Below, in pieces: positions 1,886-58,949 of a DNA stretch of 64,000 nt. The translations under genes and the position numbers were made by a program. The notes under the pieces are model-generated. The model was given only the letters and a program-made list of their open reading frames with translations, made no database searches and was not told the DNA's origin. How positions within the stretch are numbered: the stretch's first letter is position 1; each line of letters opens with the position of its first letter. Origin of the DNA: Geosiphon pyriformis uo1 (taxonomy: Eukaryota > Fungi > Glomeromycota). The stretch lies in assembly GCA_016748015.1 (NCBI GenBank), contig JAAOMT010000352.1, positions 62,001 to 126,000 on the forward strand, given 5' to 3'.

Positions 1886-2124
1886 TTTTGTAGAACATTA
1901 ATTATGTATATATAGCAGTAGCATTAGAAAAAGAAAAGACAGACATTTAGTTTAGATTTGATCTAAGCAACCTTCCATATTATAAATATCAATAAATAAT
2001 TATTTAATATCTCAAATTCACTCTACACTATCAACACTTTATGTTGATAGTAATTAATACTTAACCACACTAGAACAATAGCTTTTAATCACGGCTATTG
2101 ACAAGATACTAACATACAAATCAC

Positions 2125-2905
2125 TGTTATTCATAGAATATAGGAAGTATATTAGCATATAAATTAGCCAATCAGAAGTAGCCATAGTAAATATGGAATT
2201 CCAGAATTCCAAGATTCCTCTCAAAGGAATTGCAGAAATCCAGGAATCCCAGAATTCTTGGTGTGAAGAATTGAGGAATTGAGGAATCTCAATTATGTAT
2301 ATATATTGGTAGCATTAGAAGTAGAAAAAGCAGACCTCCCAGTTTAGATTTGATCTAAGCAATCTCTTATATCACAAATATTGAATAAATAATTATTCAC
2401 TATATCAAATCTACTCTTTACTATCAATGCTTTATATTGATAGTAATTGATACTTAACTACACTAAAACAATAGCTCTTAATCATGGCTATTGACGGGAT
2501 ACTAACTTTCATTGTCTTGGCTTATTTCTTTATTTTTTTTTATTTTTTTTATTTTTTTTATTTCTTTTGTTGTGTATTAATTAATTAAAGAATTAAAAGT
2601 GCTGAGTTATTAACATCAAGAATTGCCTGGTAAAAGATCTCTGCGAATGGGTAGAGCATATAAAGGAATTACAGATTACTTACCAGAGGAGTATTGACTA
2701 TCAAGCTAAAGAAAAAAATTGACAAAATTATGATTCTGGGAAGCTATGGGTAAACAACTATTGAATCTCTGTCCATTATACAAAAGACTTAACCAAAACC
2801 TTCAGATAACAATACCTTTAGATCACTATCATTGCGAATAGCTTCTGAATACCAAGTTACAGATTTGTTATTTGATTTTAAGACCCCTAATAATTACTTG
2901 TAACA
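2125..2905 (+). repeat. Element B 5' LTR (781 bp)
   Basis: tgttattcat...tgtaaca; direct repeat of 20145-20937; U3 contains ggaattcc/agaattcc motif arrays. Confidence 0.95.
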
Positions 2906-2907
2906 TT

Positions 2908-2923
2908 TGGTGCTCCCTATGAG
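2908..2923 (+). promoter_or_regulatory. Primer-binding site of element B (tggtgctccctatgag)
   Basis: Two nt after the LTR; begins TGG (complement of tRNA CCA); near-identical to the PBS of A, C, D, E and F. Confidence 0.88.
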
Positions 2924-5900
2924 ATATAATCCTACAGAGAACCAGTACCAACAATCATCATCCAAAAGTGGCAGAATCAAAAATCATAGGAGCAAATCAT
3001 TTAGAATTTGCCAAATCCTTGTTTCAACAATACAGTCAACAGTTAGGATTAAACCATAACCATTTCTCAGCAGAATCAGCCTTTAACTTTTACATTAACA
3101 ATAAAATCACAGACTGCTTAGGAAGAACAATTAACATTAAATCTACAAGAGAAAATTTCTATACAGAATTGTTTCAACATATCAGCTTACCAAGAAATTA
3201 CAGTTTTACACCAATCATTAGAGAAATCAATCAAATCATTGAAAGGTACACCCAATAAAAATTCCCCATCACCTACACAGACAAAGGCAAAGGAAGATTG
3301 TAAATACCAGCAATAACATTTAAAAAGATACAACCACCCACTTGGAAAAAGACCAAATTTGAATTACTAACCAATCTATCATATTATTATATACTAGAAA
3401 GTGCCATCAATATTTCCTCAGTAGACACATTCATATCAAATATGACATCAACCTTTGAACAATTTCCATTTTAAAGTAAACAAAAAAGAGCAGAATTATT
3501 AGGACTATATGGTGAATATTTTGAAAGATTTAAATTGCAATTACCAATGCCATTAGGATTTTGATCACTATTACTTCAACCAAATTTTGGAACTGCAAGT
3601 TCATAGAAAGTAATGGAATCAGAAAAAGAAAGTAAAGATTAGGAATTTACTTACCAAAACCTGATTTTAGAAAATCCAGAAGTTAAAACTTTGAACATTT
3701 AAACCCAGCAAACTCAAAACAATCCAAACTCTGAAACAATTAATTAGCAAAACTTACCTTCAGTAATTGTTATCAATTAGCTACCAATTGAACTGATTAT
3801 TGAACCAATTCAACAGCAGCCACTTCAGCAACCTATTTAACAACTTTAACTACCACAACAACAACAACAAATGACATACATACCAATTGCAAAACTGGAA
3901 AAATTTTCTGGCGAAGAAGATAATGCCCAAGCATGGATCAATAATGTTGTCAAAGTCATTACCACCAATAACTGAGATGACATTAGGACAATGCAAATCA
4001 TCCCATATTTTCTCAAGGATACTACTAACTTATAGTATCATAGCCTAGTTCAGAAACCCCAAAACTTTGATGCATTTAAATTAGAATTCCTAAGATACTT
4101 CAGTAATAATAACAGCATCAACCATCTGGCAAGTATCTTTATCACCATCAAACAGAGAGATATTGAAGCAGTCACTACTTACTTGGGATGTTTCTATCAA
4201 AATCTGCACCAAATACAAGCCATCAATGCTGATTATTTTATTACAGCCCAGATCCTGAATCAGTTTATTCATGAATTATGGAGTAGCATCTTGCAATACA
4301 TATGGCTACTACATCCAGTTAATTTACAAGATGCAGTCACATGTGCCAGAGATTTTGAATCAGCTGAATTAGAAGCTAATCACGTTCAAGCCATAAATTT
4401 AGTAATGAATGGATCATCTGACTTGGATTCCAAACTAAAGCAATTCAGTAATTCGATCAATCAGAAAATTGAGAGATATTTAGCTAACAATTATGCAATT
4501 TATCAACCACCATAATAATGCAATAATTTAAGAAACACAAATTGTTTTCAAAATTAGTCACATCCATTGTCATCATCCAATCAGCTGTGGCAGTCAGAGA
4601 TGCATGTCTGCCATAACTGTGGTAAACAAGACCATATCTAAGTTAACTGCCATTTTTATAGCAACATATGATCGAAAAATCAATATAGAAATTCTGATTG
4701 CAGATTTCAAATGCTGAATTAGTATGCAAATCAAGATCAATATCAATCCACTTATCTGTTAATGATGTAGCAGCCTATTTATTAACCATCTGTATATCAA
4801 CCTCCAGTTTATTAATTGCAGCTACAAGTAATATATCAACCATAGCCACCAGTAATTTATCAACCACAGCAACTTCAAATACTGCCCCAAAACCCTATCC
4901 AGATGACATTAAGAAACCCCAGATCTAGAGTCATCCAAAACTGAAGATCAATGATGGTGGTTTACCAACCGATCCCGAGTTTATTAAATTACCCATCAGG
5001 ATCATGCCAGTGGAGTTCAGGAGCTGGGTACACCCAAAACCTGTATTCTCAGAACTATTTAAGTCTCCTGGTAACCCCAGAAGATGTCCCATTCAGCAAC
5101 CAGAAAACCAATCACACTCTAACACCTACTAACAATATTCCACCAGCTACCATCACTAAAAATAAATCATTGGACACCATCTTCTTGTTTGAACTCAAAG
5201 AACTGTCAGTCATGCCATTATTTAGTAAAGCTGCTCTTGAAGAAAAACCTATTACCACCATGTACACTGATGTCAAAGTTGATGGCCACTTCATTAAACT
5301 GATCTTAGACAGTGAATCAGCTGGCAGCATCATCACAAAATAACTTATGGACCAATTAAGTCACTGAGTTGATCGAACTGCTAGCACACAAATCATCACT
5401 GCTAATAGAGTGACCAAGACTCCGATTGGCGAGATTGATGACTTTCCTATAAAAGTCAACAGCATTATTATGCCAATCAAGATATTAATCATGAAAATCA
5501 CTCAATACCAAGCACTTGTTTATAACAATTGGCTGTTCAAAACCAACACAACACTTGATTAGAACACACAAGAGCTTCAACTTAGCCAGAACGGTCAACA
5601 CATATGTATACCAGCCACGTGTGGTCATTTCAAGACTACCAACTTGTCAGCACTACTCATCAAGTTTGAGAAAGAAGAGAAAAAACCTATCTGGAAAGCC
5701 TATTAAGTGTTATGGATTAAAAATGACCACAACAAGTTACCACCAATACTCTTCTGGGATAACAATGAAAAAGAAAAACAAAAGAAAAAACTTACCTGAA
5801 ATGCTGACCAAGCCTAAGGAACTGACAATAACTTAAACAAATCATTAACTTGAAAATAGGAAGAGATTGACAAAGGAAAAAGAAAAAAGAAGGAAAAAGA

Positions 5901-6879
5901 AACAACACCCATCAGCACCACCACTTATAATTTCTATGTCTACACTACATCACAACAATACACTTATCACTGACCAAAACTCATATGCATTGATTGTGAC
6001 AAGAAATTGTCATCAATGAGCACATGCTGTGGTAATAATGAGGAATACCACACAGCAACAAGATTCTACTATTACCCATACATCATAGAACATTTTGAAT
6101 GACCGAAACAGTAAAAAAAATGGGACAACAAATCTTGTCTTGCTTGTGGAGAAATCCTATTGGACAAAGGAATGTGAAATAACATTCCTGAATAAGGAGA
6201 AACCTGTGATGAATCATGTCAGTACATAATTCTTATAAGTGACTGGATTAGGAAAGGAACACTAATAGAGACTGCTTAGAGAAGAGCTGTAAAATGTTTA
6301 AATAGATGTTCACATGATGACGACAAAATTTGGTGAATGGTTCTTGCCAAAATTGAAAGAATGTTACCAGAAGAAATAAGGATGATCAAAAACAACTCAC
6401 CAGAATTCATAGAACTTGACTGAGGCTCAAACTCAGATATTGTTCTAAAGCCTATGGATTCAGAACAATTTCATGAGCACTACCAAGAGTTGGCACTCAC
6501 TTGAGAAGAACAAGAGCAATAGTTAAAAGAAATAAACGCATGACTATGTGATCATTGTTTGATTCCATATAACTTTCAATATTGTAATAAGTGTGACCTC
6601 ACTTACAATCCACTACCACACATGATCTACACAATCCCAGAAGAAGATAAGCCAATTAGCAGCTGTACATCAGAAGCAGAATTGAATTTCAACCCTAATT
6701 CAAACTCCAACAATGATGACAACAAGAATAATAGTTCCAGCTCTATTCAAAATGACAATGAAAACAGCAATAATTTGTACTCCAATTTAAACCCTGAAAT
6801 ATACATTGTCTTTTCTAATCTATTCAAGAAACAGTAACTCAAATGGTTCAATGATAACAATGAAAACATCATGTCAGAA

Positions 6880-8245
6880 CAAATGCATAATACAGATGCA
6901 AAATTTGATTTAAGATATCTAGAAAAAGATACCATTAAATTGGAACCACATTTACACACATGCTGTTACTGAAGGTTTTTGGTCTCTTTTCTTAAATGTT
7001 GTTGATGCTTGTTTGCTGTGAATTCACGTTTTTTGGATGTGGTTGAACCTTCAATAACTGAATTTATCTTCAAATTATCTCCTATAATTTGGATTGCTAA
7101 GCTTATAAGTGGAATGGCCAATTCCATGCCAGTTATTTTATGTAGTTACATTGTAGTAAATGTCAACTCTTTTCCAGAAATTGCTCATCTGGAAGCTCAC
7201 TAAAATGTATAGTTACTTTGCTGTGAAAGTCAACTCTTCTACAGAAATCTTGTCTGTAGGCTACCCTAATGATTATAGTAAGAAAATAAAAAGAAAATAA
7301 AAAGATGTAAAAGAAATAGAATTCTGTCAAGGGAAACGTTTTCAATCTAGGCCTGGAGTCACTAACAGATTATTGAAATTGGTAGCTAATCAATTTCAAA
7401 ACTTTAGTTGGGTTTTGAGGATTTTCCAAGTGCAATAATTAAAGAATTTGGTTTTTTCGAATCATTTGATATTTATTTCTTTTTGTGTGTGTAAGAATGG
7501 TTCTAAGTAATAAATCTAAAGTAAGATACATTTTCTCGAAGAGAGAAGCTCTTCTTTTATACAACCTGTCATAACACTATTCTATGAACTTGAACTTTGC
7601 TATTTTTCTACAATTTTACTGAACTAAAGATACATTTCAGTGAATTACAAGTTATTTCTGCAAACTATTAGATATTTCGGTGAACTATCAATTATTTCAG
7701 CAAATTTCTATAAATTTCAGCAAACTTTTGAATGTTACATAGTTCGGGGTATTGCATAATTGATCATTGCAATTAGGTTACATTTGTGTTGTGTACAATT
7801 TGGATTATTAATTAAATGATAATTTCAGACATTTTTGCTAATGTAATAAGTGATAATTTGAAATGATAATATATGCTAATTAATGATAGGAATTATAAGA
7901 TAGTTTCATGCTAAATGATATCTCTAATTTTGTCTGGTAACAATGCATTGATCTCAAAATAGCACTGGAAATCCCAGCAACAACAATGGTTCAACTAGTA
8001 TCTAGAAGTAGTTTAGCAAAAAAAGAAATTAACATCAGAGAAGGAATAATTAATGCAGGATATGTAGGAAACATCATTGCAATGTTACAGAATGACTCTA
8101 AAAAGGCCTATATCATAGAGCCAAATAAAAAAATAGCACAGACAATATTTCTATGTCTGGTAAAAATAGCTCAGTTAGTGTTAGTAAGAAACAGAAAAGA
8201 ATTAAGGATTATGGCTAGGAAAATACAGAGTTTCAAATCCACAGA
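6880..8245 (+). pseudogene. Retroelement-encoded dUTPase domain, split by solo LTR S2
   Basis: Decayed motifs 1-5: DAKFDL (AGFDL), RSSLAK, GIINAGYVGNI, KIAQ, RKIQSFKST (RGxxGFGST). Confidence 0.88.
6964..7942 (-). mobile_element. Solo LTR S2 (979 bp) of a family seen only once in the window
   Basis: tgttac...gtaaca termini; TSD atgc at 6960-6963 and 7943-7946; dUTPase reads HTC|IDLKIAL across it. Orientation is inferred from a minus-strand TATAAAA near 7555. Confidence 0.9.
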
Positions 8246-11009
8246 TAGAATAGATGTATCAGTTAATATGGCAGAAAAAAAAATTATTGGCAAGAGAAAA
8301 ATTATTTCCACCCATCAACCAATTTCCATTCTATCATATGACCAGTACATAATAGTTATAAAGAAAAAAGTAAAAAATCAAGTTCAGATTTTTGAGACAG
8401 AAGCAACACTTTGTGAATCAGAGAAGATTGGATTAGTTAATCTATACATACCAGCTAAGAGCCACAGTCACATCAAAATTTCCATTTACAATAACACGAG
8501 AAACATTATCAAGATATCAGAAGAAACCACCATTGGATACTTAACCACTGAACTTGAAAACCAATTGCCAAACACCATTCCAGACTTTTCACAACTGTGC
8601 AAATATGTAAATATCACATTTCAAACCATATATGGATGGGAAAAATATTATCTGTTTCAACCAGAACAATTAGAACAAATAAACTTGGAAAACTTAGATC
8701 CACTACAACATATACAGCTTAAGATATTACTCAACTATTTCAATAACATTTTTGCCAGCAAAAATGAAATTGGCAGAACTGACATTATTCAACATCAAAT
8801 TAAGACTGGAGATGCAATGCCAATTAAACAGAGAGCATACAGAGTACCACCAGTTAGCCATAAAATCATTTATCAAGAAATTAATCAAATACTTAACAAT
8901 AGGTTAATTCAGTCATCAATAAACCCATGGTTGTCACCAGTGGTATTAGTCCATAAAAAAAATGGAAAAATCCACTTTTGTGTAGATTACTGGAAACTGA
9001 ATAGAATAACAAAAAAAGATAACTACTCAATTCCAAAGATCCAAGAACTGTTTGATGCTTTTGAAGAAAAGAAATGGTTCTCAACTTTAGACTTGAACAG
9101 TGGTTATTGACAAGTAGCCATAAAACCAAAAAACAAAGAGAAAATAGCTTTTACAACTCAGGAAGAAAATTTCAAATTTGAAGTGATGCCATTTGGCTTA
9201 ATAAATACTCCTGCCATATTTCAATGGCTAATGAAAATTGTTTATACTGGACTACTATGGAAATTAGTAATCGTATACTTAGATGACACCAATGTGTTCT
9301 CAAGAACATTTGATGATCATCTGCACCATTTTCAACAAGTATTTGAAAGACTTAGACAAGCAGAATTGAAATTAAATGCAAACAAATGTTTCTTTGGCAA
9401 AACTGAACTCAAGTTTTTAGAATATGTTGTGAGCAAAGATGGTATCAAAATGGATCCAGATAAGATTGAGATTGTTAAGAACTTTTCAGTACCAAATAAT
9501 TTCACAGAATTAAGAGCATTTTTAGGATTTGCTAGATACTACTGCCACTTTATTAAAGACTTTTCCAAAATAGCTCAACCACTACACCAACTTCAAACAA
9601 AGAACACCAAATATGAATGGACCAAATCTTAACAAAAAACTTTTAATACATTAAAAAAAAAGCTTATTCAAGCCCCAGTATTGATCTATTCAGATTATAG
9701 CAAGCCATTTATAATCACAACTGATGCATTTGGTTAAGCATTGGGAGCAGTACTATTGCAGAAAGGACTAGATGGTAGAGAACATCCAATAGCTTACACC
9801 AGTAGAAGCTTAAGTCTAGCTGAAAAGAACTATAGAACTCCAGTACTGGAACACTTAGCTATCTATTGGGCTGTCATTAAATTGAAAGAATATTTAAGTC
9901 AAAAGTTTGACATGTACACTGATCACAAAGAATTGACTTTAATCTAGAAACAAAAATTTGGAGACAATCATTATACCAGATGAAAAATAGAACTTTTATC
10001 ATTTAATTATACAGTATATTGCAAAAAAGGAAAAAAAAAACAGAAATGCTGATGGATTGTTGTGAATAAAACAAATCTAAAAACATTTTCAACCCAAAAA
10101 TATAACAAAAAGATGAATATACAAAAATACTAACAACTCTAACATTATATAAATACCCAATTTTTCAAGGAAAAATTATCTTAAAAAGAACAAAACAAAA
10201 TAAAACAGCAATCAAAATATTTTATCAATCATCAAAATATACTTTACTGAAAGAACAAAAGAAATCCAAATCAACCAATTAGAGTAATTACAGAACTGGA
10301 GAAAGAGACAATATTATTTAACATGTACTCAGATCCAACAGCAAAACATTTTCACAAAGAAGCAACCATAAAAAGAACCAGAAAAAGATACTATTGGCCA
10401 TCAATATATCCAAACATTATTCAATATGTTCAAAATTGTGATGCTTGTCAAAGAAGAGGTGGAACAAAACCCAATGAACCATTGAGACCAATCAAAGTAG
10501 AACAACCATTTGATTGTATTAGAATTGACTTAGTTGGACTATTAACAATCACCAACAGAGGCAACAGATATATTGCAGTAGCCATAAATTATCTCACAAA
10601 ATGGCCAGAAGGAAAAGCCATTTAAAAAGCAGATGCAGAATCCATTGTTAAATTTGTTCATCAAGATTTGATTTGTTGACATGGATGTCCAAAAAAACTA
10701 TTATCAGATCAAGAAACTCATTTTGTAAATAGAACATTGGCAGAATTAAGTCAAAGATTTGGAATAAAAAAACCATTATCATTACTATACCATCTACAAA
10801 CAAATGGGTTGGTTGAAAGGTTTAACAGAATATTGTGTGAAGCCATTGCCAAAATCAGCCAAAAAAACCAGGATGAATAGAATTTAATTATATCATCAGT
10901 ATTATTTGCTTATCGAACAATAAAGCAAGACACTACACAAGTAACACCATTCAAATTAATATACAGTAGAACAGCAACATTACCAATTGAGATAGAAGTT
11001 AAAACATAT

Positions 11010-11688
11010 TGTTATGGTTAAAACACATAGTTTTTATTAATTATCACATGTATTAGCCAATGATATCATATAATTAGCCACCCTATTTTTAGATAGTGAT
11101 CGTTGACCTGATCAATGACCTGACTGTTGACCTAATCATTGATCTGATTGTTGACCTGGTCATTGACCACTTTAAATAGCTATATAAGTGATGATTCCCT
11201 TAGCTGTAGAAAAACATGATCAAAGTAATAAAAATAAACAATATTAATTACTTCCTCTCATAATCACTTATTCCCCTTTTCTTACCTTCAAGTATCTACT
11301 TGTTGGCATTCACATACCTTATCTTTTTCCCTTCTTGATTTGTATTTGTTAGAATTAGCCTGAGAAGCAATTGGCTTGCTCTTGTAATTCATTGAATAAA
11401 GAAATGATTGAAAAGTACAACAATATCTGTTATTGATTCTAAGAATCGCTGAGTTGAGACATAAAATAATAGCAGCGGTGTTATCTTGTTGACAATTATG
11501 GACTATTCCTCTACCTTCAGATTTAAGAAAAGATTAGTGACTGCGATTTTTATAAGACTGATCATGCACATTGAATTTTTACTTATTCAATTCGCTCCCT
11601 TATTGTAATTTCTTCTTTGTTTATTTCTATCACCATACAATACTGTTCTCCCTTGCTATTCGTTAGCTTGTTACTCCAACCCGTAACA
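11010..11688 (+). repeat. Element C 5' LTR (679 bp; six 12-bp units)
   Basis: tgttatgg...cgtaaca; direct repeat of 18283-18997. Confidence 0.95.
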
Positions 11689-11694
11689 TAAAAG

Positions 11695-11711
11695 TGGTGC
11701 TCTCTGTGAGG
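11695..11711 (+). promoter_or_regulatory. Primer-binding site of element C (tggtgctctctgtgagg)
   Basis: Six nt (taaaag) after the LTR end; the same spacer is seen in copy D at 48141-48146. Confidence 0.88.
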
Positions 11712-11740
11712 TTGTTAAAATTCACTTATTCCCTCATTAT

Positions 11741-13294
11741 ATGAGTGATTACTTATATCTGCCATAGCAATCAAAAGAACACTTTGCAGCACACAACAGA
11801 AATGACCAAAGTTTCATTGAACTTAATCCTCTGCCCTCCTGCTTGATCTGTTTCTCTCTTGAAGAACAATTCAGTAGACAATTCCAAGACTTTTGGAACT
11901 GGTTCCTGAATGAGCATTCAGCTGAAACCTATACAGCTTATACAACCTATTACTTTGACCAAGCTTATTTTGAAAACGACTTTGAAGAAAGAAACAGCAG
12001 TATCAATTAGCTCTTATATTCTGCAACCTTTGAACAACAGCCCCCTAATTTCGAATATCTGAATCATCAAATCCACATTTGGATTGCTGCCCATCAAGCA
12101 ACTGAAACTCCCTTTGAAACAGAAGAAGAAAGCTACCAAACTGCCTCTGTTTTTGATCTTTTATCAAGTGAATCAGACTTGTCTATACAAACAGTTACCC
12201 CTGAATCAATGGCTAATGACCCCATGCAAGCAAACATTTTGGCCACCCTCCAAGGTATACAAACTGCTTTAGGGCGAAGAAACAACACCCCAATACCATT
12301 ATTTAGAGGTGATGCACAAGATCTAATTGAATGGTTGGATGACTTTGAAAGAGCCACTACAACCAATCAATACGATGATAAGTACAAGTTCCAAATTGTT
12401 GGTGGCTACCTTCAAGGATCCCCTGCTACCTGGTTCTTACAAGAAACAGATGCCAATGCCCAGCAAAGAATTGTTAAATGAACACCAGCAAATGTGAGAG
12501 AAATCAACACTTCTTTCACTACCTGGTTTGAAAACAAGTTCAGAACCCCAATATTAATATCAAAATGGCGTATGGAATTGGAAAGAAGAACCCAAGGTCC
12601 CGGTGAAGTTGTAACTGAATACGCCAAAGCAATCAGAAAGTTAATCAAACGAGTAGACACTGGAAGAAATTGGACAGAAGAGCAGAAAATTCACTCCTTC
12701 ACAAAAAGATTGAGAACTGATCTATTGTATGCTCTTTGGCCCCTCTTGGCCCTGAAAAATAATCCCACCATGGATATGGCCATTGAATTAGCACAAAGAA
12801 TTGAAGACAACCAAAGAATGCATTTGGGATCTACACTACCAGTTTTTGCTCCTGTTCCTGTCATGGCTCCTGCCCCTCAAATGGCTGCTACTTCTTTTGC
12901 CACTCACACTTAAGATCCAAATGAACAGTTAATAGACAGACTTACAGCAAATCTTGCTTGGTTATTAGAACCCTTAGCCCAAGCAGTCAAAGAAAATCAG
13001 CAACCACAAAGACCCAGATTTGAACCACACTTCAATCAGCCCCAGCAACCACCTTATCAAAGACAACAAAATTGTGGCCCATCTGTATGCTATCACTGTG
13101 GATTAACTGGACACTTTTCAAGAGATTGCAACAATCCTCCACTGCCTCCACCAGTCCTCAGAAATAATGATGCTCAGAACAACAGGATTAACAACAACAA
13201 TGTGCCCAACCAAAGACCCAATCATGCCAACATCAATTTCTTTGGAGAGGATCTCCTAGTTGAAGCCACTGTTTATCAGCCTTTAAACTGGTAG
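11741..13294 (+). pseudogene. Element C Gag
   Basis: ATG at 11741; capsid-like PLFRGDAQDLIEWLDDFE and RTQGPGEVVTEYAKAI; zinc knuckle CYHCGLTGHFSRDC at ~13087; TAG at 13292-13294; a few premature stops. Confidence 0.9.
13282..13288 (+). promoter_or_regulatory. -1 ribosomal frameshift slippery heptamer T TTA AAC between gag and pol of element C
   Basis: Correctly phased X XXY YYZ in the gag frame, one codon before TAG. The -1 frame is open (FKLVGTLPKGESASQ...) into ORF 13378. Confidence 0.8.
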
Positions 13295-15975
13295 GCACAC
13301 TTCCAAAGGGTGAGAGTGCAAGCCAACCAGAAAAAAACCCCTTTTACACTTTTAACTTAACTGATGATGACCATAACATGGATGAATTAGCAATCAACCC
13401 CTCTGAATCCACAAGAAAGAAGAAGAAAGCCAAAGTTGATTTCGTTCTAGACCCCAATAAAGCTTCTACATCAATTGCTAACAACAATGAGCCCTCAAAA
13501 GCCAAAGTTTTCAAGAACCCTCCAAAGTTAGAACCCCCAAAAATAGTACAAAAATCCGGTCCCTATTCTGTTGTCAAAGATCTTATGGAAACCCCAGCAC
13601 ATATAACCTTTGGCCAATTGATGACCCATCCACAATTCAGAAAAGATCTTTGCAAATCCCTAATTCCAAAGAAAAAGACACCCAAAACCAACAAACGCCT
13701 TTGCCAAGCTGGACTAGCTGACAATAGCAATGTCACTCCTCTAATTTGTAAAGCCCAAGTGGCTGACTACTTTATCAATTTGATCCTAGACAGTAAATCA
13801 TCTGTTAGTGTTATTGCCAAACACTTTCTTGAAGCAATTGGCAGAAAAATTGATGAACCATCCATACGACCAATGACCAATGTGCATGGTGATAAGAAAA
13901 AAGGGCTTGGCATAGCCAAAGCTATTCCTGTCTGCATCAATGGCATCAGCATTAAAACTGATATAGAAGTGTCTAAAACAAAAGAATACACCATCATTGT
14001 TGGCAATGAATAGCTCAAGAAAGCAAAGACTTTGCTTGATTATGAACTCTGTGAACTAACCATCAGATGTGGTGAAAAACCCATTGTGGTTAAGTGTCAC
14101 CATTGGACAACTCCCCCAGTATTCAAGCAGAGCCCAGAAAAAAATGAATCAAATGAATCAGATGATGAAAAAAGTGAGGAAGAAGAAGAACAAGAAGAAC
14201 AAGAAGAAACTGCTGAACTTGCCTATACTATCTTCACTAGTAATGGCAAACCATTGGATAATGTTAAGGCAGATAAAGAAGGAATCATTGTCAATGACAA
14301 GCTGATCTGCTGGCCTTATTATGACATGCTCAGAAGAACCTTTGACAGAAAGCCAGGCAAGAAAGCCAAATACAGTTATTGGTGGCATGGTCCTTGTGCC
14401 TGGTGCTGGTGCGACAAACCATTGTATTCTCCTAGTGATGAATGCATGTCCTGCCTGATCTATTACAAAGATTGAAAACCAATCAGCTTGATACCCTGAG
14501 AAGAAATAAAAGAAGTCCAAAAGTTCTTTGAAAATAAACCACCTGAAATCCAATTATTGGTTGTAGAACAAAGAGAACCCTCTCCAGAAGAAAGAAAAGT
14601 AGACATTGAAAACCTGCTGGCTAGAAACAGCCCAGTTATCTTAAAAGAAGGTAAACCTTCTGGACGTACACATGTGATACAACACACCATCATCACCAGA
14701 GAAACTTGTCTCATCCATTTGAAGCCCTATCAATTCAACTGGTGCAATAATGAGTTTATCAAAAAGAAAATAACCTGAATGAAAACTCTTGGATTCATAC
14801 AGGAAACCAAGAGTGAATGGGCATTCATAGTTGTAGTGGTATCTAAGAAAGGAGGAACCCTACGCTTTTGTGTTAACTATTACCAATTAAATGCCATTAC
14901 TGAAAGAGACATGTACCCACTTCCCAAGATTAATGCAATGCTAGACCAATTCCATGGTGCTGCTTTCTTCTCAACCATTGACTTAACTACTGGATTCTGG
15001 CAAGTAGAGATGGATCCAGAAAGCAGAAAGAAAACTGCCTTTATCACCAAGTATGATATCTACGAGTTCACAGTCATGTCTTTTGGTCTCACAAATGCTC
15101 CTCCCACCTTTCAACACTTAATGGACAAAGTATTTGAATCAGTAAAAGAAAACTTTGTTCTAGTCTACTTGGACGACATAATGGTATACTCAAAAACCTG
15201 GGATGAACACCTTGAACATTTGCAAAAGGTTTTTGACCTCCTTAGAAATGCTGGTCTCAAGATCAATCCAATTAAATCATTTTTTGGACGTCAATCCACC
15301 CAGTTCTTTGGTTATCTTATTACAAAAGATGGAATCTTCCCTGATCCAGCCAAAATCGAAAAAGTTCAAAACATTAAACAACCAATGAATGTTTATGAAC
15401 TACGCTCTTTTCTTGGTTTGGCCTCTTATTATTGCAAGTTTGTTAAGAATTTCTCCAAAATCGCTGCTTCTCTCAATCAGCTACTTAAGAAAAACATCAA
15501 TTATTACTGGGGCACTCATCAGCAAAAAGCATTTGAAATTCTGAAGGAAAAACTGGTTACAAAACCCATCCTCATGCAACCTAATTTGGATTAACCTTTT
15601 ATCCTCCACACTGATGCATCTGGCTATGGACTTGGTGCTGTTCTTTCCCAAAAAGATGAAGATAACAGAGAACACGCCATAGCATATGCCAGTAGAACTC
15701 TCACACCAGCAGAAAGGAACTACTCAGTTACTGAGCAGGAATGCTTAGCAGTAGTTTGGGCTACCAGCTACTGGGACAAATATCTTAAGGGTGTGAAATT
15801 TTTGGTGGTAACAGATCACCAAGCTTTGGTTTGGCTACGCAACAAAAGAAACCTGGAACATAAACAGATAACTCGCTGGATACTCCACTTGGATGAATTC
15901 GACTATGACATTCAACACTACAAAGGAGCTAATCATCAAAACGCCAATGCTCTCTCCAGACTTATCATCCAATGA
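13282..15975 (+). pseudogene. Element C Pol: protease, Cys-rich spacer, RT, RNase H
   Basis: LILDSKSSVSVI; LRFCVNY; MSFGLTNAP; YLDD; TDASGYGLGAVL; TDHQAL; NANALSRL followed by TGA TAG TAA. Confidence 0.93.
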
Positions 15976-16040
15976 TAGTAAAACCCTCTCAAACCAAACC
16001 AACTTAATTATTTGTAACTCCCCCACAAACAAACACAATA

Positions 16041-17349
16041 ATAGACTTGGACAACTACTCTGCTTTAATAAAATTTTTGGGTAAAGGACAATACCCGCTG
16101 GACTATACTTGACAGCAAAGAGAACATTTGCGCAAACAATCAAATTTCTATTTGATTCACCAGAATCAGTTATATAAAAGAAATAGAAAAGATCCTGACC
16201 GCCCCCAGAGAGTCATTAGATTTAAAGAAAGAGAAATTGTGATCTACAATATGCACATTAATCCATTAGCTGGACACTTTGAAAAAACAAAAACAATTCA
16301 GAAAACTTTAGCTTGCTATTATTGGCCTACCTTGGGAAAAGACATTGCTGAATACATCAAAACCTGTGATACCTGCCAAAGAAGAGGAAAACCCAATTGC
16401 AAGGAAAATATCCATCCAATCTCTGTTGGTCAACCATTTGATAGAATTGGTATAGATGTTGTTAGACCTTTAACAGTAATTCCTGATGGCAACAGATACA
16501 TTATCACAGCTACCGACTATCTTACAAAGTGGGTAGAAGCAAAAGCCACCCCAGATCAAACAGCAGTCTCAATTGCCAATTTTATTTATAAAGATATTAT
16601 CTGTTGCCACAGCTGCTCCAAAGAACTTTTATCTGATAGAGGAAGAGCTTTTCTCAGTACACTGGTTGAAGAACTTTGCAGAAAAATGGGAATACATCAT
16701 AAACTCTCTTCCTCTTATCATCCCCAAACAAATGGTCTAGTGGAACATTTCAATAGAACACTATGTAAAACCCTAGCCAAAACCAGTGAAGAAACCAACC
16801 TATGGGACAAAGTATTGTCTTCAGCTTTGTTTGCCTACAGAACTGTGAATTATGACATAACAAGTTATAAACCCTTTTATCTGCTCTATGAATGAATGGC
16901 AACTCTACTAATAGAAACAGATATAGAAACAATACCTTTTGAAGAAATAACAATAGGAGATTACAAGGACATTTTGCAAAGAAGACTTGATACTATTCTT
17001 GACTCATTAGTAAAAGCACGGATAATTGCCTTTGAAAAGATAAAACAGTTCCAAGAGAAGCTCAAAAAGAAAAAGACCTATAAAATACTTTCCTTAAGTG
17101 TTGGTAACTTAGTTTTGAAATACCGTTCAGACAGAGACAATGTCTATGGTAATAAATTCTCTAGCTGGTGGAAAGGACCCTTTATAGTCAACAAAGTTTT
17201 GAACAATGGTTCTTATATCTTACAAGATCAATATGGAACAATATTCAGTGATCATCCTGTTTATGGCATGCGACTCAAGAAATATCACAAATGACTTGAT
17301 TGGTTACCTGTTGGGGTAATACTGACCCAAATGATTAGCAAAAATTAGA
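16041..17349 (+). pseudogene. Element C integrase (separate frame from RT-RH)
   Basis: H-x6-H...CDTCQ; GIDVV; LSDRG; SSYHPQTNGLVEHFNRT; WKGPF (GPY/F motif); no chromodomain. Confidence 0.9.
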
Positions 17350-17395
17350 TATAAATAAATGCACCATTCCCAAAACAGAGGTATCTTCAATCAAC

Positions 17396-18313
17396 ATGAA
17401 CAATTATTTCCTGGATCAAAACATTTAAAATGCTTTCTATACTCTCCATGAGTACTGGATCAAGAACTATCTAAATGCTACTCTGACTATCGGAAAACAA
17501 ACCACTATAACAGACAACAGTGGAACTCACACTGTTATTAGACCAAAGAAAACAACTACCAGAAGAGAAAGAATTGGTGGCAAAATGGATAAATACCTGC
17601 TGGAAAGTATAACAGCAGTGATACTTTCACCTTCCATCACAATTGGAAAAACAATACAAGAAATCTTGCCCATAGACAAAAACTTGTCATATGAAAGACA
17701 ACTAGAACTCTATGGTCGTCTTGGTGAAATCATAGAAGACATGAAGCTCATGAAGAAAACAACTTCAGAGATACAAGTGGAAATTTTGGGCATTATACAA
17801 TTAGATGTCCCAAGAGTTTTGACCATTGCTAGAAGAGCCAGAACTCTAATACAAAGATTTGGTCTCTTGAATACAAAGCTTATTTTGCCTCAAGTACTAT
17901 ATACTCTATCCACAAAAGACTTCAACAAACTAGTTAGTTTTGAGNNNNNNNNNNNNNNNNNNNNAGAACTCTATGGTCGTCTTGGTGAAATCATAGAAGA
18001 CATGAAGCTCATGAAGAAAACAACTTCAGAGATACAAGTGGAAATTTTGGGCATTATACAATTAGATGTCCCAAGAGTTTTGACCATTGCTAGAAGAGCC
18101 AGAACTCTAATACAAAGATTTGGTCTCTTGAATACAAAGCTTATTTTGCCTCAAGTACTATATACTCTATCCACAAAAGACTTCAACAAACTAGTTAGTT
18201 TTGAGTTAGACAAAACTCTTCACATAGACTATCCTATAAATAGTTTGATTTCGCCGGAGCTCAATCTCTTTGGAGAGGATGATGTTATGGTTGAAACACA
18301 TAGTTTTTATTAA
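17396..18313 (+). pseudogene. Element C ORF3: unknown ~218-aa protein reading through the PPT into the 3' LTR
   Basis: ATG 17396 is in frame with ORF 17585-18313, with one intervening TAA (probably mutated CAA). Length excludes the 261-nt gap-associated duplication. A homologous region is present in copy D (~33480-34022 + 42387-42500). Confidence 0.7.
17704..18205. other. Scaffold gap (20 N at 17945-17964) flanked by an identical 241-bp duplication; probable assembly artefact
   Basis: 17704-17944 matches 17965-18205 exactly by eye; only one copy exists in element D. Confidence 0.88.
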
Positions 18314-18997
18314 TTATCACATGTATTAGCCAATGATGTTATATAATTAGCCACCCTATTTTTAGATAGTGATCGTTGACCTAATCAATGACCTAACCAT
18401 TGACCTGATTATTAACCTGATCATTGACCTGATCAATGACCTGATCATTGACCTGATCGTTGACCTAGTTATTGACCACTTTAGATAGCTATATAAGCGA
18501 TGATTTCCTTAGCTGTAGAAAGACATGATCAAAGTAACGAAAATAAACAATATTAATTACTTCCTTTCATAATCGCTTATTCCCCTTTTCTTACCTTCAA
18601 GTATCTACTTGTTGGCATTTACATACCTTATCTTTTCCCTTTTTTGATTTGTATTTGTTAGAATTAGCCTGAGAAGCAATTGGCTTGCTCTTGTAATTCA
18701 TTGAATAAAGAAATGATTGAAAAGTACAACAATACCTGTTATTGATTCTAAGAATCGCTGAGTTGAGGCATAGAATAATAGCAGCGGTGTTATCTTGTTG
18801 ACAATTATGGACTATTCCTCTACCTTCAGATTTAAGAAAAGATTAGCGACTGTGATTTTTATGAGACTGATCACGCACATTGAATTCCTACTTATTCAAT
18901 TTGCTCCCTTATTATAATTCCTTCTTTGTTTATTTCCATCACCATACAATACTGTTCTCCATTGCTATCTGTTAGCTTGTTACTCTAACCCGTAACA
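18283..18997 (+). repeat. Element C 3' LTR (715 bp; nine 12-bp units)
   Basis: Follows the PPT; 36 bp longer than the 5' LTR, equal to three extra gatcattgacct-type units. Confidence 0.95.
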
Positions 18998-19520
18998 ATA
19001 TCCAACAAAACCAATAACAGAAGAGAATTTTCAAAGAACATTGTTAAGAAGAACATATAATTTAATGAAGACACTAGAAAACACATGGCAAAGAGCAGCT
19101 AATAATATTCAAAAGTCACAAGAAAAACAAAAAGAAAGACATAATAACCAACTACCAGAGAAACCAGTTGAATTCAAGATTGAAGACAAAGTACTTCTAC
19201 ATTGTACTAAAGCAGAAAAACAATGGAGTGGAAAATTTGACCCCAAATAGAACAGACCATTTCACATAGAAGAAATTCTTGGAAATAGAGCTTATAAATT
19301 AAGGTTGAACAACAAAATCTTAATCAAAGCAGCACATAGTGATTGACTGAAACAATATTACCATATAGTATTAGTATCTACCAGTAATATTCCACAATTA
19401 GGAGTACAGAGAATACTAATCAAACCAGATGAGATTCTATAAGATCTAAAACCAATTATAACTATTGAACCAAACACATAAAATTGAACAACTGAAAGAG
19501 TATATAAAGACACAGTATAT

Positions 19521-20130
19521 ATGACAAAAAACAACAGAAAAATGAAGATTACTGATGGCATTTACTCACTAGCACAACAACTTTTTCAACTAATACAACA
19601 ACAAAAGATGGAAATTATAATTAACCAATGAACTATCAGATATACAAACACCAAAAAAGAACCACAAGATAAAATATGAAGAAAAACAGAAAACACGGTA
19701 GACAAAATAATCACAAAAGTGAAATTGGCAATAGAAACACAACCAAAAGTCACCCAATATTAAAAATTGACTATAGAAACTTGGAATTGGTAGATACAAC
19801 AATTTTCAAAAAACTTTTGTTACTTTTATTTAGAACAACACTTAAACATTCAGAATTTGTATATGGATAAAACAAAATGATTATTTGACACAACAATACT
19901 GCAACAACTAGAACAATTTGTGGGAAAAAACAATTTGACCACACAAGCAAGAGCCATTTATCAGCTATACACTGGATTTCAAGATCGACCAGAAATCTTA
20001 CTCAATCTAGAAATGAACTCCATTACTATTAACCAAATAGGAAAAATAATCAATGCTCGAAAAAGAAGTTCAAAAAATACTCAAAAATAGAGAATTAGAA
20101 TTAGGAAATCTTGATGAAGCTCAATATTAA
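19521..20130 (+). pseudogene. Element B ORF3 (~200 aa, unknown function) ending at the PPT
   Basis: MTK(T)... start; ...ARAIYQLYTGFQDRPEILLNL...SITINQIGK...LGNLDEAQY*. Frameshifted here, with homologous segments in F (~34850-35520) and G (~54776-55460). Confidence 0.6.
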
Positions 20131-20144
20131 AGAGAAGGAAATAA

Positions 20145-20937
20145 TATTACTTATAGAATATAAGAAGTATATTAGCATATAAATTAACCAATCAAAAGTA
20201 GCTGTAGTAAATATGGAATTCCAGAATTCCTCTCAAAAGAAATTTCAGGATTCTTGTACAAAGAATTGCAGGATTCCAGAATTCCAGGATTCCTCTTAAA
20301 AAAATTGCAGAATTCTTGGTGTGAAAAATTAAGAAATTGAGAAATCTCAATTATGTATATATATTGGTAGCATTAGAAGTAAAAAAGGCAGACCTCCCAG
20401 TTTAGATTTGATCTAAGCAACCTTCTACATCACAAATATCAAATAAATAATTATTCACTATATCAAATCCATTCTTTACTATCAACACTTTATGTTGATA
20501 GTAATTGATACTTAATTATACTAGAACAATAGCTCTTGATCATGGCTATTGATAAAATACTAACTTTTATTGCCTTGGCTTATTTTTTTATTTTTTTTTA
20601 TTTTTTTTATTTCTTTTGTTGTATACTAATTGATTAAAAAATTAAAAGCACTGAGTTATTAACATCAAGGATTGTCTGATAAAAGACCCCTGCAAGTGGA
20701 TAGAGCACATAAAAGAATTACAGATTATTTATTAGAAGAGTACTGGCTATCAAGCTGAAGAAAAAAATTGACAGAATTATGATTCTAAGAAGCTACAGAT
20801 AAACAACTATTGAATCTCTGTTCATTATACAAAAAACTCAACCAAAACCTTCAGATTACTATCATCACAAATAGCTTCTGAGCACCAAGTTACAGGTTGT
20901 TATTTGATTTTGAGACCCCAAATAATCACTTGTAACA
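20145..20937 (+). repeat. Element B 3' LTR (793 bp), preceded by PPT aagagaaggaaataa
   Basis: Direct repeat of 2125-2905, followed by TSD tcac. Confidence 0.95.
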
Positions 20938-31640: not shown

Positions 31641-34022
31641 AAATATTATAAAGATTATTGATTTTATTTTTATTTTATTTAACTTGATAAATACACTAAT
31701 TAACAAAAAAATTTTATGTATAGATAAATTTTTTAATATTAATTACAATATTGTTTATATTATTATTGATCTAAACAATTTTTTAAATACAGTTTTAAGA
31801 ACTTTTTATGTATAAACCAATAAAAATCAATGAAAATTTAATATAAAAAATATTAATAAAGTAAAATATAAATTTTTTAGAGTTTTAATATTCAATATTG
31901 CTATTATGTATATTAATAATTTTATTGTTATAAGAGGTTTTTAAATATAAATAGAATATAAAATATTGTTTATAAAGTAGTCTGTCTTTTAGCAAATAAG
32001 ATATTTTTCAAATTCTAATTTAAAGACTATAATAGTATTTTTATTAAATTTTTATCTTGTTTTCACAAATTAAAAACTTTGGTCTTTAAGTTAGTTAAAA
32101 CATTTTGCTTAGTTTCAAGTAATACATTAAATTTATTTTTGAAACTTTGGCTTTTTTTTAATGTTAACAATATTTTTAAAGTAATAATACTTTTTAATTC
32201 AAATATCTATTTTAATATTATTTAGTTTGCTTTATTAAAGACTAAAAAGTTATATTAAGTTTCAAAAATAACAGAATTTTAGTATGCTAAAAAAATACAT
32301 ATTAAGTCTTATATTAATAAAAAAACAAAAAATTTTAAGATAAACAAAAACCATATAATTTAAAATGTTTTAGATAATTTTTTTACAAAGTAGTATTAAA
32401 TTATTTAGTAATTAATAAAAAATTGGTATTAAAGCTTAAGTTACTTAGTCTAAGATAAATGTAATTATAGAGAGTTAAACAAGAAAGCATAAAATATTGA
32501 ATGTAGTTTTTAAAATATAACATCAATAATATTTTTTGCTGACTTATATAACTAATAAGACTTTTTTTGGTATTATGTATTTTATTAGTTTTAATAAATT
32601 GTTGAGTTTAATTTTGGATCTGTTTAATAGAAAAGCAGTTGGTTTTTCTGGTATTTCAAATAAATTATGAAAATATTACAACAAAATAATATTGAATATG
32701 CTTTTAGATTTTATAAACTTTTATTTGATACTATTATAGATAATTATTTTAGCATTGAAATAAATAAACTTATAACTTAATGCTTAATAACTAGTTATAT
32801 TGTTAATAATTTCTGGAGATTTTCGGATTTAAAAATTTTAGTTAAGTTTTTTATATTGTTATTAGTTGAAGTAACAAGATAATAAAAAAAAAAAAAATAG
32901 AATTGTATAATAATAGAATGAATCAAAAAGAATTTAACTTCAAAGAGTGAATTGAATAAGTAAGGATTTAATGTGTAAGATCAGTTTCATAAAATATCTT
33001 AATTACTATTTTTTTAAAGGATAACCAGAGAATCTAAAAGTAGAAAAATAGTTTGTATTATTAACAAATAATAACATATTGATATAATTCTATGTCTTAT
33101 GTCAGCACTTTTAGAATTCAATATTAAATATAAAATGTGCTTTTCAGTTATATTTTATTTAATAATCTTCAGCTACAATTATATAAGTTAAGAAAAAGAT
33201 ATATAAATGCCAACAAGTAATTTTTTATCCTAAGATATTTAAATACTTAAAAGTAAAAAAAGAGAAATTAGTAATAAAAAAAAATTAAAATAAAGTTGTT
33301 ATTTGATTTTTTTGATTTGTATATGCTTTTTTATAGCTAAAAAATTTATTGCTTATATAGCTATTAAAAATAGTTAATAATCAGATTAATAATCAAATTA
33401 TTAATCAGATCAATGATCACTATCTAAAAATAGGGTGGCTAATTATGTAATATCAGTAGTTAATATATATAATAATTAATAAAAACTATGAGTTTCAATC
33501 ATAATATTATTCTTTCCAAAGAAATTAAGTTCTGACAAAATCAAGTTATTTATAGAGTAGTTTAATGAAAAATTTTGTCTAATTCAAAGCTAATTAGTTT
33601 GTTAAAGTTTTTTGTAAATAAGATATATAATATCTGAAGTAAGCTAAGTTTTGTATTTAAAAGATCAAATCTTTGTATAAAAGTTTTGGCTTTTTTAGCA
33701 ATGGTCAAAACTTTTGAGATATCTAATCATATAATGCTCAGAATTTTTACTTGTATCTCTAAAGTTGTTTTCTTTATAAGCTTTATGTTTTCTATGATTT
33801 TACTAAAACAACCATAAAGTTTTAGTTGTCTTTTATATAATAGGTTTTTGTCTATGAGCAAAATTTCTTTAATCTTTTTCCAAGTATATTAGAAGATAAT
33901 AGTATATTTGCTGTTATGCTTTTAAGCATATATTTATCTATTTTACTGCCAATTTTTTTTTCTGATAGTGGTTTTCTTTGGTCTAATAACAGTATGTATT
34001 CTATTATTATTAGTTATAATGG

Positions 34023-37000
34023 TATTACAAATGATTATTTGGGATGTTAAAACAAATAACAAATCTGTAACTTGGTGTTTAATAGTTAGTAATATTAGTA
34101 ATTTCTGAAGGTTTTGAAGTCTAAAAATTTTGGTTGAGTTCTTTGTATAATAAACAGAGATTTAATTGATAGTTTTTTTCATAAATTTTTTTCTTCAGCA
34201 TAGTGGCTAGTTTATTTTAGCAGTTGTGCTCTTTTGATAAGCTATCTTTAAATTTCTACTCTTATTTTTAGGTTTTTTATTAGACTATTCTTAATGTCAA
34301 AATATTTAATGCTTAATTCCTTTAATCAATTAGTAAATAACAAAGAAACCAAACAAAAAAAAATAAAAAAAAATAAAAAATTAATATTTTATTAATAGTT
34401 GTAATCAAGAACTATTGGTTTAATGTAATTAAGTATTGAATTCTATCAATATAAAGTGTTAATAGTATAAAAGTGAGTAATATTTTTAATTAAATGACAA
34501 TAGATGTTTTATTAATATTAATGTGTTTCTATTTCAAGTTATAGAAAACTATCTTTTAAAAAAAGAATATTAAGATTTTAAACTTTATCAAATTCTGAAT
34601 ACTTTTCTACTTTTAACATTCTTATTATATATACATAATTTCTGTTATATAAGATTCCTGGAAATTCTGCAATTTCCAAAAAGAATCCTAAAATTCTGCA
34701 ATTTCTTAAAAAAAATTTTGGAATTCTGAAATTCTGCAATTCTTTAAAAAAATTCTGGAATTTTCTATTTTACTATGTTTATTTTTGATTGGCTATTTTA
34801 TTTATTATTATAATTCCTAATTTTTATAAGTAACATTATTCTTTCTTTTTAATATTGAATTTTATTAAGATTTCCTAAATCTCTTAAATTTTTTCTTAGA
34901 TTAGCTCTATTATTTCTTTCTTAAAAATTACTTAGACAATATTGGTCTGTAATTTTTCAAATTGAGTATTAATAATTTTTTCCAATTGGTTGATAGTTAC
35001 TATGTTTATTATTAGATATAATAATATTTCCAAACAGTCTTGAAACCTTGTTTGTAATTGGTATATTGCTTATATTTGTATAGATAGATTGTTTTTTCTT
35101 ACAAATTGTTTGAATTGTTGTAATATTATTATATTGAATATTTGTTTTGTTTTATTTGTATATAAGTTTTAAATATTGAGTTTTTGTCCCAAATAATAAT
35201 AACAAAACTTCTTTGAAAATTGTTGTGTCCACTATTTCCAATTTTTTTTGGTTAACTTCTTATATAGTACTATTGTCTTTAGTATTTCTATGGATATTTT
35301 TACTTTTGCTATTATATCCTCTACTATATTTTTATATTTTCTGTATATCTTATATTGTATTTCATACTGAGATTTCTATTTTGTTTCTGTATATTGAATG
35401 ATTTGTTAATTGATTGTGATTTTTATGTTCAGTTTTTAATATTTAATTAGTTAAAATAATTGTTGTATTAGTAAATAAATATTATTAGTAATTTTTATAT
35501 TTTTATTTGTTTTTAATATGTGTATTGGGTCTTTATATACTGTTTTTATTAATTATTTTAATGTGTTTGTGTCAATAATTATGATTGATTCTAGATTTCA
35601 TAGAATTTTATCTGATTAGACTAGTATTCATTATACTTCTAGTTGTAAAATATTACTAATAGATAATAATACTATGTTGTAATATGGTTTCAGTCAATCT
35701 CTATGTGCTGTTTTAGCTAAGATTTTGTTGTTTTATCTTAATTTATAAGCTCTATTTTCTAAAATTTTTCAATGTAAAATGGTTTATTCTATTCGAAATC
35801 AAATTTCTACTCTATTGTTTTTCTACTTTGGTATAATATAAGAATATTTTGTTTCCAATCCTAAATTCGATTGGTTTTTTTGGTAATTGATTATCATGTC
35901 ATTTTTTTTGTTTTGCTTGTGACTTTTAGATATTATTAATTGCTCTTTGTCTTTTGTTTTCTAAAGTTTCTATTAAATTGTATGTTCTTTTTAACAATGT
36001 TTTTTGAAAATTGGCTTTTATTATTGGTTTTATTGGATATGTATTGATATCTATCTTAACTGGTAATATTACTGTTCTATAAACAAGTTTAAATAGTGTT
36101 GCTTATATGGTATCTTGCTTTATTGTTTAATAAACAAATAATACTGATGATATAAACAAATCTTATTTGTTCTGGTTTTTTTGGATTTTGACTATTGCTT
36201 TACACAATGTTCTATTGAATTTTTCAACTAAGCTATTTGTTTATAGATAATATAATAATAATAATAGTCTCTTAATTCCAAATCTTTGACTTAATTCTGT
36301 TAATATTCTGTTCACAAAATGAGTTTTTTAATCTGATAACAATTTTTTGGACATTTATGTTAACAAATCAAATCTTGGTAAATAAATTCAGCTATAAATT
36401 TTGTATTTGTTTTTTGAATTGCTTTTGTTTTTGGCCATTTTGTAAGATAGTCTATGATTATTGCTATATATTGATTAACTTTGTTGGTTATTATTAATAG
36501 TTTGACTAAGTTAATTCTAATTTAATCAAATAGTTGTTTTACTTTAATTGGTTTTAGTGGTTTATTGAATCTTGTTTCTCTTTTTCTCTAATAAACATCA
36601 CAATTTTGAACATATTGAATAATTTTTAAATACATAAGTGGCCAATAGTATCTTTTTCTGGTTTTTTTTATGGTTGTTTTTTTATAAAAATGTCCTGCTG
36701 TTAGATCTGAATACATATTAAATAATATTGTTTTTTTCTTTAATTCTGTAATTACTTTGAATAACTGGTCTGAATTTTCTGTTTTTCTGATATAGTATAT
36801 TTTGATAAATAATAAAGTATTTTGATTGTTGTTTTATGTTGCTTTGTTTTTTTAAGATAATTTCTTCTTGAATTATTGAATATTAATATAATATTAGAGT
36901 TGTTAATATTTTTGTGTATTTATTTTTTATTATATTTTTGGATTAAAATGTTTAGATTTGTCTTATTTGTGACAAACTGTTAGTATTTCAGTTTTTTTTT

Positions 37001-53160: not shown

Positions 53161-53240
53161 GGCTAGATGTTTTTCGTATGTTTAGTGAGTGATAGTGGTA
53201 AAAGAAGAGTCGCGATCTGCGTCCACCCAACTCAGCCCTG

Positions 53241-53246
53241 TTTATA
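53241..53246 (-). promoter_or_regulatory. Candidate TATA box (TATAAA) of the NTPase-REase gene
   Basis: About 80 nt upstream of ATG 53160, in otherwise GC-rich context. Confidence 0.4.
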
Positions 53247-58604: not shown

Positions 58605-58930
58605 ATTTTTTTTATTTGCATTTACAAATAAGGCCCAATTACTATCTAATACAATACAACTGTTTAGAGTTCTAAATTAAATGTGAATTATGTACTTACT
58701 ATATGTGATCAGCCATCTGGCTGATCAAGACTATACTATGCAATTATATTGACAGAAACACTTCTAATAGCATTAGCATAAAACAAACAACCCATATCTA
58801 AGCCAAAATTAATTGAATAATTCTTCTCTATTTTAAGCAACCAAATGACATTGTCTAAAACTCTGATAAAAAGACCATAAATATGATTAAACACAAAATA
58901 ATCTTCATGTATACTTTTGAAGAAAGGGGT
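58605..58930 (-). mobile_element. Short LINE 3'-end fragment
   Basis: Shares the 3'-UTR motif (atatgtga(t/c)cagcca) and ORF2 tail with 30990-31240; T-run at the left end. Confidence 0.55.
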
Positions 58931-58949
58931 ATAAGATTATTAATTAATT

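Follow-up and report, generated by a model that had tools for sequence, protein, structure and literature searches.

The window analysed here comprises 64,000 nucleotides of the Geosiphon pyriformis genome (contig JAAOMT010000352.1, positions 62,001 to 126,000, forward strand) and consists of nested gypsy elements, with an island rich in guanine plus cytosine (GC) among them (Table 1). The comparisons described below centre on a Ty3/gypsy retrotransposon, referred to as element C, with its two long terminal repeats (LTRs), and on its decayed relative, copy D. Post-insertion, unselected, gradual and strand-symmetric C>T change was observed in these integrated retrotransposons. Its rate follows the order CpG > YCNY > others (Y, pyrimidine; R, purine; H, any base except G; N, any base) and is strongest in transposon DNA.

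Table 1 Features of the window, with positions counted from its first nucleotide
Feature	Position	Strand	Remarks
Element C	11010..18997	+	Ty3/gypsy; Pfam matches to reverse transcriptase (RT), RNase H and integrase; target duplication ATAT
5' LTR of element C	11010..11688	+	TG...CA ends; 12-bp units in a short array
Internal region of gypsy element C	11689..18282	+	gag-like, protease-like, RT, RNase H, integrase
Domains of element C	RT 14779-15594; RNase H 15595-15975; integrase 16113-16895	+	
Duplicate around 20-N gap (17945-17964)	17704..18205	+	241 bp, 100% identical
3' LTR of element C	18283..18997	+	94% identity to 5' LTR; ATAT target duplication
Older gypsy element hosting C in its integrase	2124..20936	+	LTRs ~2124-2904 and ~20140-20936
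Copy D, decayed relative of C	42334..48795	-	76% identity
Probable 3' end of D, with its 3' LTR	32853..34023	-	split off by a nested element (~34024-42333); served as outgroup
GC-rich island, gene G9A89_018756 and upstream region	50212..53700	-	GC 45%, CpG observed/expected (o/e) 0.86

The internal region of element C contains 10 in-frame stops across its three frames, most of them premature. The 241-bp duplicate flanking the N gap is most likely a scaffolding artefact and was left out of the spectra. An additional open reading frame (ORF, 17429-18240) lies between the integrase and the 3' LTR, spans the gap and the exact duplicate, and has no Pfam match. The two LTRs also differ by three units (36 bp) in the array of 12-bp units (11100-11165 and 18373-18475). 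The older gypsy element that hosts C is bounded by the target duplication TCAC, and its LTRs are 88% identical, with 83 transitions and 8 transversions between them. Copy D retains 1 CpG and has acquired 48 new stops in 1534 codons. GC content is lower with decay, being 37% in C, 22% in D and 18-19% in the oldest relics, and 45% in the island.

When the LTRs of element C were aligned, 41 of 679 columns differed, by 40 transitions and 1 transversion; the AT allele was in the 5' LTR at 24 of the transitions. The original prediction had counted about 34 differences with one transversion; the near-purity of transitions, the effect on both strands and the 5'-pyrimidine and CpG contexts were borne out. 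By context, 10/26 CpG, 23/116 non-CpG YpC and 5/91 RpC sites were changed (p = 0.004), and the difference persisted at sites with both neighbours identical (non-CpG YpC 20/104 vs RpC 5/84, p = 0.009). The GC allele was confirmed as ancestral by the outgroup at only 15 of 39 differing sites, because the outgroups have decayed too. Strand-coordinated runs were absent from the LTRs (runs test, P = 0.78 and 0.17 for 24 and 15 changes), although many rounds of mutation could hide coordinated bursts from this test.

The same spectrum was found when C was compared with D: C>T outnumbered T>C (636 vs 104) and G>A outnumbered A>G (495 vs 80). Outside CpG, 435/717 YpC and 206/624 RpC sites were changed (p = 3e-24), again on both strands. 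Nine further alignments within the window, some of them overlapping, gave YpC odds ratios above 1 in 9/9 in the first direction, with p<0.05 in 5/9. The C>T changes in D are spread evenly over the codon positions (0.47, 0.41 and 0.50), whereas transversions between C and D are most numerous at the third (37, 33 and 95). This flatness indicates that the C>T changes arose after insertion and without selection. At positions 1 and 2 together, 549 of 1227 C sites show C>T and 15 show C>A. No regional heterogeneity of mutation load was detected along D. Copies in the window that are only 57-76% alike have gone on decaying.

The substitutions expected for decayed copies were indeed present in D, where GAA>AAA had occurred at 54/83 codons, GAT>AAT at 22/48, TGG>stop at 18/27 and CAA>TAA at 14/54. 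The 38 CG dinucleotides of C had become TA (16), TG (12), CA (7) or other (3) in D, and none was kept; the frequent ending of CG as TA is thus confirmed, and its 16 cases agree with the general non-CpG rate. AC, GC and GT had been thought to survive. In D, however, only 57%, 41% and 54% of them are unchanged, compared with 31% of TC and 17% of CC, and they are slower to decay, not spared. The A-run cited from D near 45660 is present at ~45644-45694, but it contains a 15-base deletion.

The context was resolved further with a logistic model of 5105 non-CpG cytosines in seven window pairs, 47% of which are mutated. A pyrimidine raised the odds 2.0-fold at -1 and 1.8-fold at +2, with 1.2-1.3 at -3, -2 and +3 and 1.0 (1.01) at +1; the strand effect (odds ratio 1.05) and an effect of local load were absent. 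With single bases, T at -1 was the strongest flank (2.2; C at -1, 1.6), and C and T at +2 each gave 1.9. The odds ratio for Y at -1 exceeded 1 in 7/7 window pairs (p<0.05 in 6) and that for Y at +2 in 6/7. CA and CC show the +2 effect most clearly, and CT shows it weakly; it does not reach significance in the LTR pair of C by itself (17/105 vs 11/102, p = 0.31) or in window pair F. A CHG effect was rejected, +2 G being equivalent to +2 A. A 3' dinucleotide preference was not seen (0.47 for A, 0.50 for C and 0.47 for T at +1; p = 0.38), and (CA+TG)/(AC+GT) is 1.12 in D. Indices for repeat-induced point mutation (RIP) that are based on CpA work with fixed thresholds; since this signature has no 3' preference, such indices would miss it.

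Corrected changes per C in D are 1.10 for YcHY, 0.69 for YcHR, 0.55 for RcHY and 0.35 for RcHR, compared with ~0.012 for C>A. AC and GC decay about 2.3-fold more slowly, and still at about 30 times the rate of C>A. Accordingly, every cytosine is hypermutable, and the context preference spans about three-fold. The predicted signature of a 5' pyrimidine plus CpG holds in its YpC excess over RpC and is incomplete without the +2 pyrimidine (odds ratio 1.8-1.9), and the term "YpC specificity" overstates a preference of only 2-3-fold.

Beyond the window, we examined 120 gag-like proteins of G. pyriformis, the best 120 of 145 matches to the ORF at 4036-4515. Their amino-acid changes comprise 1308 of the C>T/G>A type, 288 of the reverse type and 465 others. 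Changes exceeded 5% at 76 of 103 columns eligible for the C>T/G>A type and at 14 of 151 eligible for the reverse. In a CpG-controlled test of 9 columns only, at which CpG is impossible, those with Y at -1 (n = 3) changed at 0.21-0.23 and those with R at -1 (n = 6) at 0.08-0.16, all of the former being higher; P>L (CpC) was not raised in this test. Without the CpG control, YpC and RpC were not separated (0.13 for both D>N and E>K, 0.14 for A>T and 0.16 for V>I/M).

The island differs in composition from the elements. Its gene, G9A89_018756, is spliced (exon joints occur in contigs of X2 and X8) and has a weak AAA/P-loop match; among the sequencing runs listed as matching, none is recorded as RNA. 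Four-fold sites have 42% GC and introns 36-45%, with CpG near expectation, and the edges are sharp to ~100 bp against flanking relics of 15-22% GC. Residual C is flat by context in the island (0.45-0.52) and graded in the relics (0.13-0.29). The claim that the island keeps CpG and TC is correct overall; in its last exon, however, GC and TC are kept and CpG o/e is down to 0.25 (main exon, 1.02). This suggests that CpG methylation reaches further than the non-CpG process. The island had also been called single-copy, which it is not, as two full-length paralogous proteins with intact frames are 99% identical to its product. Over 710 residues, G9A89_018813 on the same contig differs from G9A89_018756 by 3 substitutions, and G9A89_020410 by 5 substitutions and a 2-residue gap. 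The duplicated genes are ~2 kb long and were compared at the protein level, at which they are ~99% identical. A truncated paralog of 136 residues differs at 8 of 129, 7 of the 8 being of the C>T/G>A type.

On balance, we consider it probable that the C>T changes are driven by heterochromatin-guided, DIM-2-like methylation (by a putative enzyme of the DNMT1 family) in all contexts, followed by deamination. The trigger would be transposon chromatin (H3K9me/HP1 or small RNA) and not the pairing of duplicates. A putative DIM-2-type enzyme would methylate cytosines in every context, with the graded context reflecting the flanking preference of the methyltransferase, and deamination of the methylated cytosines would then fix C>T. 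A CpG maintenance activity may act on top of this and spread further, by a few hundred bases, into the 3' exon of the island gene. As an outcome, the elements would be permanently disabled. In the window, their GC content drops from 37% to 15-22% and their reading frames are lost, and the expressed gene between them retains GC and CpG.

Related enzymes and effects are described in passages of several papers. Arbuscular mycorrhizal (AM) fungi are reported to retain DNMT1, DIM-2, RID and DNMT5, and 32.5-49.5% of cytosines to be methylated in Rhizophagus (PMC8298701), which we presume to exceed what CpG alone could carry. DIM2 performs CG and non-CG methylation under H3K9me3/HP1 and touches the -1 flank, its flanking preference being left unresolved there (PMC11315935). 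In Zymoseptoria, methylated repeats acquire mitotic C>T mutations through Dim2 (PMC8016269), and in Trichoderma Dim2 causes C>T in sexual development (PMC11381340).

Several observations weigh against this methylation-driven mechanism. The enzyme list of PMC8298701 concerns other AM fungi and is cited second-hand, and the known effects of DIM-2 or Dim2 favour the 3' base (CpT or CpA), to which Geosiphon is indifferent. The intact paralogs, which we use below against RIP, are possibly too young to have been hit. The remaining points come from the island, which was compared with contigs of X4, X5 and X8; 40 of 52 differing places were displayed, at a depth mostly <5, and the contigs could stem from paralogs or from other isolates. 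The 40 comprise 36 transitions and 4 transversions, a ratio that does not differ from the 40:1 in the LTRs (p = 0.20). A pyrimidine at +2 is enriched (18/468 vs 6/485, p = 0.012), and of the 8 changes that could be polarised 7 are GC>AT (p = 0.07). The changes fell on 12/238 CpG, 11/447 YpC and 13/506 RpC sites. The absence of a YpC excess from the island (rate ratio 0.96, 95% confidence interval 0.43-2.14; difference from the LTR pair, p = 0.04) draws on just 24 island changes, from contigs of low depth.

The transition-rich island, its +2 bias and its lean towards GC>AT imply that part of the spectrum may be genome-wide. If so, the repeats may merely escape selection, GC-biased conversion or repair from a general C>T bias with its own context, and no dedicated mutator beyond CpG methylation would be needed. 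We regard this explanation as unlikely, since island introns and four-fold sites keep 36-45% GC and near-expected CpG next to sharply bounded relics of 15-22%, and since in the island the -1 preference is missing and residual C is flat by context. Repeat restriction nevertheless rests on composition and not on a measured rate, the island being no true single-copy rate control. What stands of the predicted restriction is the both-strand C>T change on integrated repeats.

A homology-triggered, RID-type RIP with a new context and a cryptic sexual stage would also give nearly pure transitions on both strands in repeats, and RID is reported in AM fungi (PMC8298701). However, intact gene duplicates of ~2 kb with nearly identical proteins, one of them on the same contig, tend to argue against homology-triggered RIP. 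There is moreover no CpA preference and there are no strand-coordinated runs, the load along D is even, and decay continues in copies only 57-76% alike. RIP of this type appears distinctly improbable. The original prediction had invoked a homology- or heterochromatin-directed system; its heterochromatin half fits the data, and its homology half is weakened by the intact duplicates.

AID/APOBEC-like or DddA/SsdA-like deaminases prefer TC. A cytidine deaminase of this kind, acting on silenced chromatin or element cDNA, would explain why T at -1 is the strongest flank. The preference is only 2-3-fold, however, RpC is strongly hit, strand bias and clustering are absent, the differences between the twin LTRs post-date integration, and CpG is the fastest class; we give a deaminase little chance. 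APOBEC-type clustered hypermutation of one cDNA strand in particular was rejected, the strand odds ratio being 1.05 and the changes showing no runs and lying after integration.

Ultraviolet damage at dipyrimidines, in a surface-dwelling fungus with poorly repaired heterochromatin, would account for the 5'-pyrimidine preference and for both strands. It was rejected as largely refuted and is very improbable: tandem CC>TT is not in excess (after A, G and T, doubles do not exceed what independence predicts), a 3' pyrimidine has no effect, the +2 effect is strong and RpC is heavily mutated. Homopolymer slippage or misalignment in AT-rich DNA, in which A and T runs are abundant in the relics, can practically be dismissed. 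A>T and G>T beside T reach only 1-6% while C>T after T reaches 61%, with no excess of run-extending transversions; the -1 effect is also present in the 94%-identical LTR pair. In 12 context-free simulations, realigned and scored alike, odds ratios were ~1.0 (at most 1.12/1.19), compared with the observed 2.58/1.94.

As a null for the method, and not as a matched biological control, we used 35 distant gypsy loci from a metagenome scan (39-49% amino-acid identity), in which divergence is mostly that of active elements. Among their 82 alignments, p<0.05 was reached for Y at -1 in 2, for Y at +2 in 3 and for both in 0, and the median transition/transversion ratio was 1.8. Ten clusters of related RTs gave mixed spectra with low counts. 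One of the 35 loci, L037, contains an internal repeat (1-675 vs 7191-7831) with 30 transitions and 4 transversions, an excess of Y at -1 (20/146 vs 4/111) and no +2 effect.

Among known systems, the Dim2 mutator of Zymoseptoria tritici is alike in producing non-CpG C>T largely in transposon DNA, which would be methylated in Geosiphon too, in disabling elements and in not demonstrably needing sex. Over 98% of its changes lie at CpA and CpG is not hit, whereas in Geosiphon, a member of another phylum, +1 is indifferent, Y is favoured at -1 and +2, and CpG is fastest (PMC8016269). RIP of Pezizomycotina (Neurospora; RID and a DIM-2-dependent branch) shares the both-strand C>T, the AT-rich relics beside GC-rich genes and the stops in elements; unlike it, Geosiphon has neither a CpA nor a CpT bias, lacks strand runs and keeps near-identical gene duplicates intact (PMC13297926, PMC4352252). 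Published fungal mutation signatures are CpA, CpT and CpG (PMC4352252). The TpCpG hypermutation of Pucciniomycotina shares the 5'-T preference and the CpG loss in transposons, but partial TpCpG matches are not raised there, while in Geosiphon all non-CpG classes are hypermutated and +2 matters (PMC3318451). Transposon CpG methylation in Rhizophagus and Gigaspora, of the same fungal group, would account for the CpG loss; these studies measured CpG only, and RIP signatures are stated to be undetected in G. margarita (10.1101/2021.03.30.436303; 10.64898/2026.01.14.699541). Because a 3' preference and strand runs are missing and near-identical gene copies stay intact, the Geosiphon process is not filed as RIP; it acts in the manner of the DIM-2/Dim2 mutators, with an outcome similar to that of RIP. 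It is a known kind of repeat mutator with a new context in an unexpected lineage, and the enzyme is a candidate only.

The statement that no RIP is described in this lineage agrees with the literature searched. Among titles and abstract beginnings, with Malar 2021, Clutterbuck 2011/2017 and bioRxiv supplements outside the scope, no description of mutation of this kind in Geosiphon or in Glomeromycota was found. The species table of a RIP survey of 1,239 genomes (PMC12543289; 12 of 19 supplementary files searched) does not list Geosiphon. RIP is never mentioned in the main text of two AM fungal genome papers, one of them a survey of transposable elements that includes Geosiphon. The searched passages of PMC12344493 and PMC11258239 contain no non-CG data for this fungal group. 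RIP-like mutation counts as a trait of Dikarya, and the passages concerned state that it was undetected in Gigaspora.

The YCNY motif provides a precise prediction for the methylome and for the flanking preference of the DIM-2 family, which PMC11315935 calls open. LTR expansion is reported to make up 41% of the Geosiphon genome, and its divergence-based ages are likely inflated. It seems unlikely that an enzyme (of the RID/DIM-2 type or a recruited deaminase) actively mutates repeats in Geosiphon with a Y-C-N-Y specificity that no described RIP shares. Such a mutator, if real, would be a RIP-like defence outside Dikarya, either older than the split between Dikarya and Mucoromycota or separately evolved; were it also linked to meiosis, cryptic sex in Glomeromycota would have left a record in the sequence.

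Further observations concern the island and the rest of the window. Differences in 50212-50800 comprise 7 YpC vs 3 RpC, and those in the core 4 vs 10 (p = 0.10), which hints that the decay of the flanking relics leaks in here. The region at 52800-53700 reaches a depth of up to ~70 in X4 and X5, vs 2-3 in the gene body, with mixed transitions and transversions among the differing places displayed (40 of 133), and is a multi-copy, CpG-retaining upstream module. The island family consists of a few near-identical P-loop/AAA-like copies with a common core and differing N-termini, an arrangement that resembles that of crinkler-like modular genes. More distant relatives of the protein occur in Gigaspora, Racocetra, Selaginella, a rotifer and Ceratocystis. 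No tRNA genes were found in the window. A decayed fragment at 58700-60000 (CpG o/e 0.08, TC/AC 0.83) has no Pfam match; it resembles the 3' end of a non-LTR retrotransposon, and its decay implies that the process may extend beyond LTR elements. One gypsy family of the window carries a dUTPase domain (PF00692, 840-1733), with a matching copy at 7941-9110, which is noteworthy in a genome with heavy cytosine deamination.

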